A stretch of DNA of 64,000 bases. Origin: Escherichia coli (GTDB taxonomy: Bacteria > Pseudomonadota > Gammaproteobacteria > Enterobacterales > Enterobacteriaceae). A program made the position numbers and the translations under genes. Position 1 is the stretch's first letter. Each line of letters starts with the position of its first letter. A model generated the notes under the pieces. The model did no database searches. It was not told the DNA's origin and was given only the letters and a program-made list of their open reading frames with translations. Of this stretch, positions 31,445 through 60,129 are shown in pieces. The stretch lies in assembly GCF_003790525.1 (NCBI RefSeq), contig NZ_CP033635.1. The stretch is one strand, 5' to 3'.

Positions 31445-31681
31445 TTAACGCAGCGCCCACCACTCGCGCAGACAGGCTTTGCCTTCCGGGCAGCTTTTAC
31501 AACTGCCAGAGAGGCAGCCGTCAGGTTCTTCCTGAATCCGCACGGCTTTGCCCATGCTTTCCAGCTGTTGCAGCATGGCGTTAATCATTGGCTGCGGAGT
31601 GTTCAATGTCTGGCTTATCTGGGCCGCTTCCATACGGCCCCGTAACGCCAGCAAATCACGCACCTGAATAAGTGAAGCCAT
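31445..31681 (-). CDS. feoC: ferrous iron transport protein FeoC (78 aa)
   Basis: [24 protein letters not shown]... winged-helix protein with a C-terminal Cys cluster; overlaps the feoB stop. Confidence 0.85.
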
Positions 31682-34002
31682 TAATGGCAATCACCGGTGG
31701 TGCTGGCTGCGCAGCAACTGCTTACCGACTTGCGGGTTGCCAGCAGTTCGATATCCACCCGGCTACGCGCGCGGCGCAGCAGACCGATAACCACGATGTT
31801 AAACAGGATAACCGCCAGAATGCACACCAGGCTGTAAGTTGGGTGCTGACTGTAGCTGGCGACCTGATAGAACAATGTTGCCAGTGAGTAAGCGATATTC
31901 AGCCCCCACAGGATGGAGAAGCCCATCCAGCCACGGCTTGATTCACGGGCGATAGCCCCCATCACCGAGATGCACGGTACATACAGCAGGACGAAAATCA
32001 GGTAGCTGTATGCGGCAGCTGCGCTACCGAATTTCTGATCCATCACGCCCATCGCCCCGGTACCCATTTCGCCGTCGCCTTTGCTGGCTTCAATGGGGTT
32101 CATCAGTACGCTAAGGCTGAAGGTGTCTTTCAGGCTCTGCCAGGTTTCATCTATCGCACTGAACAGCTCTTCACCGAGGTTAAACTCTGCCGGATTGAAC
32201 TCTTCGTCCTGAATATTTTCTGCGGTGTAGAGGGTGTTGAGCGTACCCACTACCACTTCTTTCGCCATGGCACCTGTAAACAGGCCAACCGTTGCCTGCC
32301 AGTTATCTTCATGCACGCCAATTGGCTTGAAGACCGGGGTGATCACCCGGCTGACGGACGCCAGCGCCGAGTCGTTGATGTTATCGACGATTTTCCCGCT
32401 CAGCGAGAAGCTGTTGAAAGCGCTCAGGAAAATGCTGACGATGATAATCACTTTACCAGCACGCAGAACGAAGCCTTTCAGACGCTGCCAGGTCTGGATA
32501 ATCAGGCTTTTAACGTGTGGTACATGATAGACCGGCAACTCCATGACAAACGGCGTCGCTTCACCGCGCATGATGGTGTACTTGAGCATCAGGCCAGTCA
32601 GCACCGCCATCACGATACCCAGCATATACAGCGAGAAGACCGCCAGCGCACCGTTCTGCCCGAAGAAAGCAGCCGCAAATACGGCGAAGATAGCCAGACG
32701 CGCGCCGCAGGACATAAACGGTGCCATCATGATGGTCATCAGACGTTCACGCGGTGCATCAAGCGTACGTGCGCCCATTACCGACGGTACGTTACAACCG
32801 AAACCAACGATCAGCGGTACAAAGGATTTCCCCGGCAAGCCCAGCGCCTGCATCAGACGGTCCATCACAAACGCCGCACGCGCCATATATCCGGAGTCCT
32901 CGAGGAAGGAGAGGAACAGGTACATCATGCCGATCTGCGGCACCAGTGGCAGCACGGTGTTAATACCGCCGCCCAGGCCCTGGGCGAGGAAGATAGTCAG
33001 CCAGTCCGGGAAGTGGAGCGTGTAGCCAATCCACTGAATACCATGCACAAATAGCGCCACGGAGCCGACGTCAAACAGCGGCTGTAACGCCCCGCCGATG
33101 TTGATAGCCAGCAGGAACATCAGGTACATCACAAAGAGGAAAATCGGCAGACCGAGGAAACGGTTGAGCACGATTTTATCTACCGCAGTGGTGAAACGGC
33201 TGGGTTCTGCCGTCAAGGTGTTGCTTACCACATCACAGATAGCAGCAATGCACTGGTAACGCGCATCGGCAATGTGCAGCGCCGGATCGTCCATCTCATT
33301 ACGCAGACGGGCGAGGGCGGCATCAAGATGCTGCGACGCTTCACCGGCGTAGGCGCGGCTGTAGATATCGCCTTCCAGCATTTGCAGACCCAGCCAGCGA
33401 CGTTGTTTCAGCGGGATGTCGGAAGGCATCACTTTTGCCAGTGAATCTGCTTCGTTGAGTAGCGGCTGTGCGTAATGCACCAGTTCCACATTCTCGTTAG
33501 CTTTATAGCGATCAATCGCCAGCTTGAGCGCTTCAATACCGCGACCACGGGTTGAAACCAGCGGGATCACCGGGCAGCCAAGACGCGCCGACAGAGCATC
33601 AATTTCAATACGAATATTTTGCTTCTCGGCAATGTCGAGCATGTTCAGCGCCACGATGCAGGGAATGCCGAGTTCCAGCAGTTGCAGCGTCAGGTACAGG
33701 TTACGCTCAAGGTTAGACGCATCCACCACGTTAATCAGCAGGTCGGCGTCGCCACTCAGAATATAGTGACAGGCGATTTGCTCATCGAGCGAGGTCTGCG
33801 ATGAGATGGTGGTCAGAGAATAGGTGCCAGGCAGGTCCACCAGGGTGACCTGATGATCGGTGGTGGAGAATTGCCCTTCTTTACGTTCGACGGTAACGCC
33901 AGCCCAGTTACCTACACGCTGACGTGCGCCAGTGAGCTGGTTAAATAAGGTTGTCTTGCCAGAATTTGGATTACCAATTAAGCCAATGGTTAATTTTTTC
34001 AT
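31681..34002 (-). CDS. feoB: ferrous iron transporter FeoB (773 aa)
   Basis: N-terminal G-domain (GNPNSGKTT) plus a polytopic membrane domain; start trimmed to [10 protein letters not shown]. Confidence 0.95.
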
Positions 34003-34018
34003 TGTTGTTATCACCGTA

Positions 34019-56719: not shown

Positions 56720-57808
56720 ATGGAGAGGATTGTCGTTACTCTCGGGGAACGTAGTTACCCAATTACCATCGCATCTGGTTTGTTTAATGAACCAGCTTCA
56801 TTCTTACCGCTGAAATCGGGCGAGCAGGTCATGTTGGTTACCAACGAAACCCTGGCTCCTCTGTATCTCGATAAGGTCCGCGGCGTACTTGAACAGGCGG
56901 GTGTTAACGTCGATAGCGTTATCCTCCCTGACGGCGAGCAGTATAAAAGCCTGGCTGTACTCGATACCGTCTTTACGGCGTTGTTACAAAAGCCGCATGG
57001 TCGCGATACTACGCTGGTGGCGCTTGGCGGCGGCGTAGTGGGCGATCTGACCGGCTTTGCGGCGGCGAGTTATCAGCGCGGTGTACGTTTCATTCAAGTC
57101 CCGACGACGTTACTGTCGCAGGTCGATTCCTCCGTTGGCGGCAAAACTGCGGTCAACCATCCCCTCGGTAAAAACATGATTGGCGCGTTCTACCAGCCTG
57201 CTTCAGTGGTGGTGGATCTCGACTGTCTGAAAACGCTTCCCCCGCGTGAGTTAGCGTCGGGGCTGGCAGAAGTCATCAAATACGGCATTATTCTTGACGG
57301 TGCGTTTTTTAACTGGCTGGAAGAGAATCTGGATGCGTTGTTGCGTCTGGACGGTCCGGCAATGGCGTACTGTATTCGCCGTTGTTGTGAACTGAAGGCA
57401 GAAGTTGTCGCCGCCGACGAGCGCGAAACCGGGTTACGTGCTTTACTGAATCTGGGACACACCTTTGGTCATGCCATTGAAGCTGAAATGGGGTATGGCA
57501 ATTGGTTACACGGTGAAGCGGTTGCTGCGGGTATGGTGATGGCGGCGCGGACGTCGGAACGTCTCGGGCAGTTTAGTTCTGCCGAAACGCAGCGTATTAT
57601 AACCCTGCTCACGCGGGCTGGGTTACCGGTCAATGGGCCGCGCGAAATGTCTGCGCAGGCGTATTTACCGCATATGCTGCGTGACAAGAAAGTCCTTGCG
57701 GGAGAGATGCGCTTAATTCTTCCGTTGGCAATTGGTAAGAGTGAAGTTCGCAGCGGCGTTTCGCACGAGCTTGTTCTTAACGCCATTGCCGATTGTCAAT
57801 CAGCGTAA
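56720..57808 (+). CDS. aroB: 3-dehydroquinate synthase (362 aa)
   Basis: Full-length ORF with the NAD-binding [14 protein letters not shown] region. Confidence 0.95.
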
Positions 57809-57899
57809 CAACAAGAAAGGTCAGGCCGCTTATCAAGCGGTCTATTAGCTTCAGGTTAATTGCAACGTGGTAAGCATTAACCTTTTAGTGGGGTGTTAA

Positions 57900-59186
57900 A
57901 TGGATGAATTCAAACCAGAAGACGAGCTGAAACCCGATCCCAGCGATCGTCGTACTGGTCGTTCTCGTCAATCTTCTGAACGTTCTGAGCGTACTGAACG
58001 TGGCGAACCGCAGATCAATTTTGATGATATTGAACTTGATGACACTGACGATCGCCGTCCGACTCGTGCGCAAAAAGAGCGCAATGATGAGCCGGAAATC
58101 GAAGAAGAAATTGACGAATCCGAAGATGAAATCGTGGATGAAGAGCGCGTAGAGCGTCGTCCGCGTAAGCGCAAAAAAGCAGCCAGTAAACCCGCTTCTC
58201 GTCAGTATATGATGATGGGGGTCGGCATTCTGGTTCTCCTACTGTTGATCATCGGTATCGGTTCTGCGCTAAAAGCCCCCTCGACCTCTTCCAGCGATCA
58301 AACCGCGTCTGGCGAGAAGAGTATTGATCTTGCAGGCAATGCGACCGATCAGGCGAATGGTGTGCAGCCAGCGCCGGGAACCACGTCTGCGGAAAATACT
58401 CAGCAGGATGTTTCTCTGCCGCCGATCTCTTCTACGCCGACTCAAGGGCAAACCCCGGCGGCAACGGATGGTCAACAACGTGTTGAAGTGCAGGGTGACC
58501 TGAACAATGCGCTGACCCAGCCACAAAATCAGCAACAGTTGAATAATGTGGCGGTCAATTCCACGTTGCCGACTGAACCCGCGACGGTCGCGCCTGTTCG
58601 CAATGGCAATGCATCGCGTGACACGGCGAAAACGCAAACCGCTGAACGTCCGGCCACTACGCGTCCAGCTCGCCAGCAGGCGGTGATTGAACCGAAAAAA
58701 CCGCAAGCAACCGTGAAAACGGAGCCGAAGCCGGTAGCACAGACGCCGAAGCGTACTGAACCAGCTGCTCCTGTGGCAAGCACGAAGGCACCGGCTGCGA
58801 CCTCTACGCCAGCACCAAAAGAGACCGCAACTACGGCTCCAGTACAGACGGCATCCCCGGCGCAAACCACGGCAACACCAGCCGCTGGAGGGAAGACCGC
58901 AGGTAATGTGGGTTCGTTGAAATCGGCACCGTCCAGCCATTACACTCTGCAGCTGAGCAGTTCCTCTAACTACGACAACCTGAACGGTTGGGCGAAGAAA
59001 GAGAATCTGAAAAACTACGTTGTCTATGAAACGACGCGTAATGGTCAGCCGTGGTATGTCCTGGTTTCTGGCGTGTACGCTTCGAAAGAAGAGGCGAAAA
59101 AAGCGGTATCTACATTGCCAGCCGATGTCCAGGCCAAAAACCCGTGGGCGAAACCGCTGCGTCAGGTACAGGCCGATCTGAAGTAA
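57900..59186 (+). CDS. damX: cell-division protein DamX (428 aa; SPOR domain)
   Basis: Acidic N-terminus, single TM segment, long Pro/Thr/Ala/Gln-rich linker and C-terminal SPOR domain; precedes dam. Confidence 0.9.
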
Positions 59187-59292
59187 TCAAGGTTATCTCC
59201 CGCAATGGTTTATCATCGCGGGAGTTGCCTGAAGCGCTGGATGCTGTCGGAGCTTTCTCCACAGCCGGAGAAGGTGTAATTAGTTAGTCAGC

Positions 59293-60129
59293 ATGAAGAA
59301 AAATCGCGCTTTTTTGAAGTGGGCAGGGGGCAAGTATCCCCTGCTTGATGATATTAAACGGCATTTGCCCAAGGGCGAATGTCTGGTTGAGCCTTTTGTA
59401 GGTGCCGGGTCGGTGTTTCTCAACACCGACTTTTCTCGTTATATCCTTGCCGATATCAATAGCGACCTGATCAGTCTCTATAACATTGTGAAAATGCGTA
59501 CTGATGAGTACGTACAGGCCGCACGCGAGCTGTTTGTTCCCGAAACAAATTGCGCCGAGGTTTACTATCAGTTCCGCGAAGAGTTCAACAAAAGCCAGGA
59601 TCCGTTCCGTCGGGCGGTACTGTTTTTATATTTGAACCGCTACGGTTACAACGGCCTGTGTCGTTACAATCTGCGCGGTGAGTTTAACGTGCCGTTTGGC
59701 CGCTACAAAAAACCCTATTTCCCGGAAGCAGAGTTGTATCACTTCGCTGAAAAAGCGCAGAATGCCTTTTTCTATTGTGAGTCTTACGCCGATAGCATGG
59801 CACGCGCAGATGATGCATCCGTCGTCTATTGCGATCCGCCTTATGCACCGCTGTCTGCGACCGCCAACTTTACGGCGTATCACACAAACAGTTTTACGCT
59901 TGAACAACAAGCGCATCTGGCGGAGATCGCCGAAGGTCTGGTTGATCGCCATATTCCTGTGCTGATCTCCAATCACGATACGATGTTAACGCGTGAGTGG
60001 TATCAGCGCGCAAAATTGCATGTCGTCAAAGTTCGACGCAGTATAAGCAGCAACGGCGGCACACGTAAAAAGGTGGACGAACTGCTGGCTTTGTACAAAC
60101 CAGGAGTCGTTTCACCCGCGAAAAAATAA
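59293..60129 (+). CDS. dam: DNA adenine methyltransferase (GATC), 278 aa
   Basis: N6-MTase motifs ([11 protein letters not shown]-binding region, DPPY catalytic motif). Confidence 0.95.

Follow-up and report, generated by a model that had tools for sequence, protein, structure and literature searches.

The damX gene is the sole real gene at positions 57900-59186 of the 64,000-nucleotide stretch of Escherichia coli DNA analysed here (contig NZ_CP033635.1 of RefSeq assembly GCF_003790525.1; hereafter the window), and the two minus-strand open reading frames (ORFs) found within it, at 58269-58940 and 58529-58870, are almost certainly shadow ORFs of damX and not translated genes. A first-pass annotation of the same DNA had flagged long antisense ORFs in the region encoding the damX linker, among them 58269-58940, as almost certainly not genes, and had named coding-potential scoring and conservation analysis as checks. 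The ORFs exist at these positions, and the judgement passed on them is upheld by five independent lines of evidence: non-conservation, constraint on the sense frame only, codons and a product that are not gene-like, the lack of a family or promoter match, and near-absence from a collection of about 15 billion predicted proteins. The features considered are listed by position and strand, with the evidence for each in parentheses.

57900-59186, plus strand: damX coding sequence, 428 aa (ORF; matching annotation; Pfam SPOR; PDB 2LFV; sense dN/dS of 0.07-0.12; codon score)
58209-58271, plus strand: transmembrane segment of DamX, residues 104-124 (hydrophobic stretch in the translation)
58272-58919, plus strand: low-complexity periplasmic linker of DamX, residues 125-340 (composition)
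58932-59153, plus strand: SPOR domain of DamX, residues 345-418 (Pfam PF05036, E = 1.9e-14)
58269-58940, minus strand: 223-aa ORF with an ATG start, in the codon-aligned antisense frame (ORF list)
58529-58870, minus strand: 113-aa ORF with a GTG start, in the antisense frame that shares third codon positions with damX (ORF list)
58272-59186, minus strand: full stop-to-stop codon-aligned antisense frame, 305 codons (upstream TGA at 59187-59189)

Both antisense ORFs lie wholly inside damX. Of 5426 complete E. coli genomes, 5425 contain a match annotated as "cell division protein DamX", with identities of 96-100%, and the window allele shows 100% identity to that of strain FDAARGOS_497 and, at the DNA level, 97.7% identity to that of MG1655. 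The gene is flanked by aroB (56720-57808) on one side and dam (59293-60129) on the other. The same aroB-damX-dam order, and hence conserved synteny, is present in the reference E. coli genomes (six RefSeq genomes inspected), in which RefSeq places only aroB, damX and dam at this locus. As read from the sequence, the N-terminal part of the protein (residues 1-103) is acidic and basic in character; it is followed by the transmembrane segment, which has a constant length of 21 aa across 78 orthologues. At the other end of the protein, residues 334-428 match PDB entry 2LFV, "Protein damX", with an E value of 1.3e-55. This is the common layout of the bitopic SPOR-domain division proteins (DamX, FtsN and DedD), which consists of a cytoplasmic N-terminus, one membrane helix, a periplasmic spacer rich in Pro, Gln, Ala and Thr, and a C-terminal SPOR domain. 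The window protein does not differ from the DamX of the literature and is DamX itself. The ligands of SPOR domains are denuded septal glycans (Arends et al. 2010, cited in PMC12288456).

The low-complexity character that the first-pass annotation had ascribed to the linker, with its PAAT, TAPV and QQ motifs, is readily confirmed. Ala, Thr, Pro and Gln make up 55% of the linker (17%, 16%, 12% and 10%, respectively, in residues 117-334, which correspond to 58250-58900; the figures for residues 125-340 are the same), and motifs such as TPAATDG, APAATST, TVAPV, TTAPVQ, QNQQQL, GQQ and RQQ are visible in the translation. Repeats at the DNA level were considered as a source of this low complexity and rejected: Tandem Repeats Finder reports none in the linker, the single array that it detects in damX belongs to the N-terminal domain (57974-58001), and the bias is one of composition alone. 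Leu accounts for 3% of the linker residues, compared with 11% in the window's proteins. Across 79 Enterobacteriaceae, the linker keeps a length of 216-250 aa and a Pro, Thr, Ala and Gln content of 48-59%, while its identity drops to 50-66%. Because length and composition are conserved despite this low identity, and in line with established knowledge, we infer that the functional element at this locus is the DamX linker itself, a compositionally conserved and probably disordered or flexible periplasmic tether that would connect the membrane anchor to the SPOR domain.

The relationship between the 223-aa ORF and its host gene is one of exact codon register: each codon of the ORF is the reverse complement of a single codon in damX. 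The CAT codon of His347, read on the opposite strand, supplies the ATG (58938-58940), and the CTA codon of Leu124, a residue of the membrane helix, supplies the stop (58269-58271) in the same way. In this register, an antisense stop is possible only at a sense TTA, CTA or TCA codon. The whole of damX holds two such codons, CTA114 (58239-58241) and CTA124 (58269-58271), which create antisense stops at 58241 and 58271; both encode Leu, and both are inside the transmembrane segment. TCA is used for none of the 35 Ser residues of damX, and TTA for none of the 23 Leu residues; the gene prefers TCT, TCC and AGC for Ser and CTG and TTG for Leu. The linker, with 7 Leu and 16 Ser residues, is encoded without any TTA, CTA or TCA codon. 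In the upstream direction, the antisense frame is closed by the TGA at 59187-59189, just beyond the damX stop. The open frame thus continues through the SPOR domain, so that the linker by itself does not account for it.

To gauge how unusual such a frame is, a proxy gene set of 43 long non-overlapping ORFs of the window was used, which is ORF-based and not a curated annotation. In these 43 proxy genes, the codon-aligned antisense frame is the one in which stops are rarest, with 2.31 stops per 100 codons versus 3.78 and 4.22 in the other antisense frames; an average window gene carries about 5 codon-aligned antisense stops per 223 codons. Apart from damX, 10 of the 43 are open for 200-370 consecutive codons in the codon-aligned antisense frame. 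The 305-codon run of damX ranks third among the 43, and ordinary enzyme-sized genes of the window have equal or longer runs. A naive null based on base composition gives 223 open codons a probability of about 1e-3, but this null disregards the gene on the opposite strand. The relevant null is the same DamX protein with its synonymous codons redrawn from window usage, under which the longest run has a median of 144 codons, a run of at least 224 codons is reached with P = 0.09, and a run of 305 codons or longer with P = 0.014. Also with window-average codon usage, the lack of any stop-making codon from residue 125 to the end of damX has P = 0.003. The 113-aa ORF has a length that is unremarkable by codon resampling (P = 0.35). 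As a string of codons, the 223-aa ORF thus does exist, but it is not exceptional.

The contributions of composition and codon choice can be separated by simple expectations. At the rate of 2.31 stops per 100 codons, a stop-free stretch of 216-223 codons has a chance of about 0.6% (by arithmetic), which the Leu-poor linker lifts to about 4%: with window codon usage, 3.0 stops are expected in the linker and P(none) is 0.04. Codon preference adds a further, approximately three-fold, increase to the chance of an open frame. With the codon usage of the damX orthologues (TCA at 0.10 of Ser codons; TTA plus CTA at 0.055 of Leu codons), about 2.0 stops are expected and P(none) is about 0.12, again by arithmetic. 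The preference of damX for TCT and CTG thereby explains much of the absence of stops, although not rigorously all of it. The 223-aa open frame accordingly stems from its codon register with damX, in which a stop requires a sense TTA, CTA or TCA, and the lack of any such codon 3' of the transmembrane segment reflects the Leu-poor linker, the damX codon preference for TCT and CTG, and a chance of about 1 in 8. The first-pass annotation had attributed the long antisense frames to the biased composition of the linker. The direction of that explanation is right, as the shortage of Leu does help, but it is incomplete, and composition takes second place to frame register and codon choice.

Silke in 1997 and Merino et al. 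in 1994 reportedly described shadow ORFs, long stop-free frames opposite real genes that occur in the codon-aligned frame in particular, and attributed them to codon bias. The 223-aa ORF shares with these its codon alignment with a bona fide gene, substitutions that are dictated entirely by the sense frame, and comparable runs in 10 other genes of the window. No essential difference is seen, and the Leu-poor, low-complexity linker adds to the codon-bias effect. Neither damX nor the shadow-ORF phenomenon is new, and damX serves as a worked example of how codon-aligned antisense frames yield ORFs of at least 200 aa in enterobacterial genes.

To follow the antisense frame over a wider evolutionary range, a scan of species-representative genomes was carried out, which returned 80 damX loci from Escherichia to Buttiauxella; 78 of these (one partial and one truncated copy were left out) were aligned with the window gene to give 79 sequences. 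The antisense ORF is not conserved in this alignment. The linker is free of codon-aligned antisense stops in 13 of the 79 orthologues, and the mean of about 2.2 stops per linker is what codon frequencies predict. The ATG of the 223-aa ORF is present in 31 of the 79, and in 5 of them it is followed by at least 200 aa. In the remaining 48, the ATG is lost, either because the His347 codon is CAC, which is used as often as CAT, or because the residue is Asn (19 sequences). Across the 79 sequences, stop-making codons are not avoided in the linker at the level of the family: in the linker, the N-terminal domain and the SPOR domain, TCA has shares of 0.100, 0.102 and 0.093 of the Ser codons, and TTA plus CTA have shares of 0.055, 0.054 and 0.032 of the Leu codons, respectively. 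Close to E. coli, the frame is broken in E. albertii by a TTA at codon 214, and a Ser TCA codon two codons past the antisense ATG is found in E. whittamii, in Escherichia sp. E1V33 and in a locus labelled E. coli SCPM-O-B-8794. In five E. coli genomes, MG1655 among them, the 113-aa ORF is shortened and spans 65-69 aa.

Within E. coli proper, the 223-aa ORF is not visibly disrupted; disruption is confined to sister lineages. Seven alleles were read over their full length, namely those of the window, of five complete E. coli genomes and of Escherichia sp. MOD1-EC7003, and each of them retains an intact ORF with its ATG. The 41-mer around the antisense start is identical in at least 5402 of the 5426 complete E. 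coli genomes, and the start-killing TCC-to-TCA allele is absent from these 5426 genomes. Such a pattern could be read as that of a young, E. coli-restricted de novo antisense overlapping gene translated at a low level, like the candidates obtained by ribosome profiling of EHEC, and intactness across E. coli alone does not by itself exclude a species-restricted gene. The stop-free run, somewhat longer than the codon-resampling null would give (305 codons, P = 0.014), also leans this way, and antisense overlapping genes are documented in enterobacteria, as exemplified by ShET1 within pic (cited in PMC12350097). We nevertheless consider this reading very improbable, and we attach an equally slight probability to its narrower form, in which the ORF is a very young gene confined to E. 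coli sensu stricto that encodes a highly basic protein on which purifying selection is not yet detectable. The invariance of the start region is expected from the low divergence of the start of the SPOR domain in E. coli and is not evidence of selection, and the nearest sister lineages break the frame by changes that are synonymous in DamX.

The pattern of substitution speaks further against a young gene and for a shadow ORF. Nei-Gojobori estimates were made for sense codons 125-347 in 11 comparisons that extend from Escherichia to Citrobacter. In all of these, sense dN/dS lies between 0.07 and 0.12, whereas dN/dS in the codon-aligned antisense frame is 1.2-2.9 (1.8-2.9 among Escherichia alleles). 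Most of the base differences are at third positions of sense codons (counts for positions 1/2/3 are, for example, 4/5/28 and 14/9/63), and among Escherichia alleles nearly all of them alter the antisense protein. Relative to the window, the 22 base differences of E. coli AH21A060 cause no change in DamX and 22 changes in the antisense protein; the 19 differences of strain 119 cause 1 and 19 changes, and the 23 differences of MG1655 cause 4 and 21 changes, respectively. Sense dS within the span of the ORF is 1.5-2.5 times that in the rest of damX, and this increase is the opposite of what is expected from dual coding. Neither purifying selection in the 223-aa frame nor a reduced synonymous rate in the host gene is seen in the 11 comparisons, and the data show that DamX is the only target of selection. 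The frame of the 113-aa ORF has a low dN/dS of 0.09-0.18, which was rejected as evidence of coding: it is low because the third positions that this frame shares with damX echo the sense signal, and the ORF is cut to 65-69 aa elsewhere.

A codon log-odds model trained on the 42 other genes of the window also separates the antisense ORFs from real genes. The real genes score 0.345 ± 0.115 bits per codon, with a minimum of -0.070, and the codon-aligned shadows of the other genes score 0.110 ± 0.082. With 0.296 bits per codon for the whole gene and 0.174 for the linker, damX in sense is within the range of window genes. In contrast, the 223-aa ORF scores -0.178 bits per codon, which is below all 42 genes and also below the shadow ORFs of other genes, and the 113-aa ORF scores -0.092. 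The hypothetical 223-aa product would contain 26% Arg, 13% Leu and 6% Cys and would have a pI of 12.0, a make-up that is not gene-like and that counts against a young gene. Its origin is visible residue by residue, as linker Gln codons are read as Leu in antisense, those of Pro, Thr, Ala and Ser as Arg, Ala as Cys and Pro as Trp; the Arg-, Cys-, Trp-, Gly- and Leu-rich composition mirrors the Pro, Thr, Ala, Ser and Gln codons of the linker. Pfam yields no family match for either antisense ORF.

Signals for expression of the minus strand were sought by consensus scans. No promoter-like site is found on the minus strand 5' of 58940, and no Shine-Dalgarno-like sequence at the usual spacing is found in the 25 nt before the ATG (AGGAACTGCTCAGCTGCAGAGTGTA); as consensus scans, both results are weak evidence, and both point away from a translated young gene. 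Pervasive antisense transcription is known in E. coli, and the minus strand of the linker could be imagined to yield a non-coding antisense RNA that modulates expression of the damX-dam operon, in which case the ORF would be irrelevant. Nothing specific favours such an RNA, and its existence as a regulator is judged to be highly unlikely. Rfam gives no match on either strand of 57700-59400 at E values up to 1. The sole promoter-like match on the minus strand, at 58051-58024, is located downstream of and outside the ORFs, and the counts of promoter- and terminator-like matches equal the shuffled expectation. In addition, synonymous sites evolve faster in the span than elsewhere in damX, a difference that speaks against an additional constraint on the DNA.

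Verified antisense or nested overlapping genes provide a useful comparison. ShET1 (set1), antisense within pic, and olg1 and olg2 of Pseudomonas aeruginosa (cited in PMC12350097) resemble the 223-aa ORF in that each is a long ORF embedded antisense in an annotated gene. They differ in that ShET1, olg1 and olg2 have direct evidence of expression and function, while the damX ORF has an antisense dN/dS above 1, is not conserved and has codon usage that is not gene-like. If it were a true gene, the 223-aa ORF would be a large antisense overlapping gene within a cell-division gene, and the evidence is strongly against this. Since the antisense ORFs are not genes, the region calls for no extra annotation; in practical terms, there is nothing beyond damX to annotate here.

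Gene callers hardly ever predict the 223-aa ORF, an observation that also sits poorly with a young gene. Neither the window allele nor the MG1655 allele of the 223-aa ORF has an exact match among about 15 billion predicted proteins, and a homology search with the ORF found only 14 similar clusters among 5.8 billion clusters. Two of these look-alike clusters were inspected. One comes from an assembly in which dam and damX are fragmented; the other comes from a metagenome scaffold for which the gene table contains the antisense ORF and no damX call, and on which a 403-aa damX ORF is present. Gene calls for the exact 113-aa ORF exist on five contigs from read assemblies, all of them short (916-2041 bp). 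Over-annotation of damX shadow ORFs, against which the first-pass annotation had been directed, thus happens, although rarely, and the risk of mis-annotation is small but real, as a few automated calls in public data pick up shadow ORFs where damX is fragmented or uncalled.

Published data were consulted for signs of expression. A full-text literature search for damX together with antisense found nothing relevant. PIRT-Seq, a genome-wide translation-reporter screen in E. coli K-12, proposed 215 candidate coding sequences (PMC12350097); the gene column of S.Table 2, which covers these 215 candidates, has no damX entry (PMC12350097), and the 223-aa ORF was not detected in this screen, which again weighs against a young gene. 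The view that the antisense ORFs are not expressed is based on this one published screen and on the sequence signals described above. In the follow-up of the screen, a nested candidate "within damX" is reported that was seen in one replicate only (PMC12350097). Its tagging primer matches window positions 58100-58149 on the plus strand, which places the tag before the TAG at 58150-58152. This candidate was rejected as support for the antisense ORFs, as it corresponds to an ORF in the sense +1 frame at 58000-58152, in the acidic N-terminal domain. Like the antisense ORFs, it is an unannotated ORF in damX, but it was proposed from experimental data and is located on the sense strand and outside the linker. 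A Salmonella Tn-seq paper was likewise set aside as an antisense lead, as "antisense" in that paper refers only to the orientation of the resistance cassettes. The same Salmonella study scored a "hypothetical protein" locus tag, STM14_4197.J, that is attached to damX.

Antisense reading frames within damX have been entered as genes in other sequences. The features concerned are as follows, L088 being a metagenome scaffold and L087 an NCBI assembly.

L088 1330-2541, minus strand: damX ORF of 403 aa, missing from the gene table
L088 1501-2172, plus strand: antisense ORF of 223 aa, present in the gene table
L087 1501-1959, plus strand: antisense ORF of 152 aa, called

In L088, the gene table includes the antisense ORF and omits damX, even though the 403-aa damX ORF exists there. 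In L087, both dam and damX are fragmented where the antisense ORF is called. A published case of such over-annotation may be STM14_4197.J of Salmonella Typhimurium 14028S, a "hypothetical protein" that adjoins STM14_4197 (damX) in a Tn-seq list and was scored as negatively selected (PMC7242855). Because the intergenic regions given in that study leave no space between damX and its neighbours, STM14_4197.J is probably nested in damX.

The codon-aligned antisense frame can be closed only by TTA, CTA or TCA sense codons. The damX of Intestinirhabdus alba (L035, 2001-3329) has none of these codons, and thus its antisense frame is open across all 443 codons. In Citrobacter amalonaticus AUH_CA_2023_1 (L051, 2001-2270), damX itself reads through for no more than 89 aa, suggestive of a frameshift, a pseudogene or an error in the assembly.

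Comparable codon-aligned antisense open runs lie opposite four large genes of the window.

31681-34014, minus strand: large gene, run of 370 codons
22001-24394, plus strand: large gene, run of 326 codons
49783-52359, minus strand: large gene, run of 302 codons
34684-37005, minus strand: large gene, run of 290 codons

These runs, explained in the same way as that opposite damX, are just as likely to be singled out as "long antisense ORFs".

Across 79 Enterobacteriaceae (loci L001-L080), the DamX linker (58272-58919, plus strand, in the window) measures 216-250 aa with a P+T+A+Q content of 48-59%, while its identity to that of the window drops to 50-66%. Retention of length and composition despite this drop, together with a dN/dS of ~0.1, suggests from sequence comparison that these two properties, rather than the exact sequence, are constrained. 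In eight of eight comparisons, dS over the linker span (58272-58940, plus strand) is 1.5-2.5 times that of the N-terminal and SPOR parts (for example, 0.19 vs 0.08 and 1.75 vs 0.95). This excess may stem from weaker codon bias, from recombination or from alignment effects.

On the sense strand, the N-terminal domain of damX holds two further features.

58000-58152, plus strand: 50-aa ORF with a GTG start, +1 frame of the N-terminal domain
57974-58001, plus strand: 9-bp tandem repeat, TTCTGAACG x 3.1

Based on the tagging primer position, the ORF is the nested "in-damX" candidate that was SPA-tagged in the PIRT-Seq study, where it came from a single replicate only (PMC12350097). Primer IN-damX_DW.F corresponds to 58100-58149, directly ahead of the TAG at 58150-58152. 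The stop-to-stop frame has a constant length of 73 codons among the six Escherichia loci, and is variable elsewhere, in other genera. The tandem repeat codes for a SERSERTER stretch.
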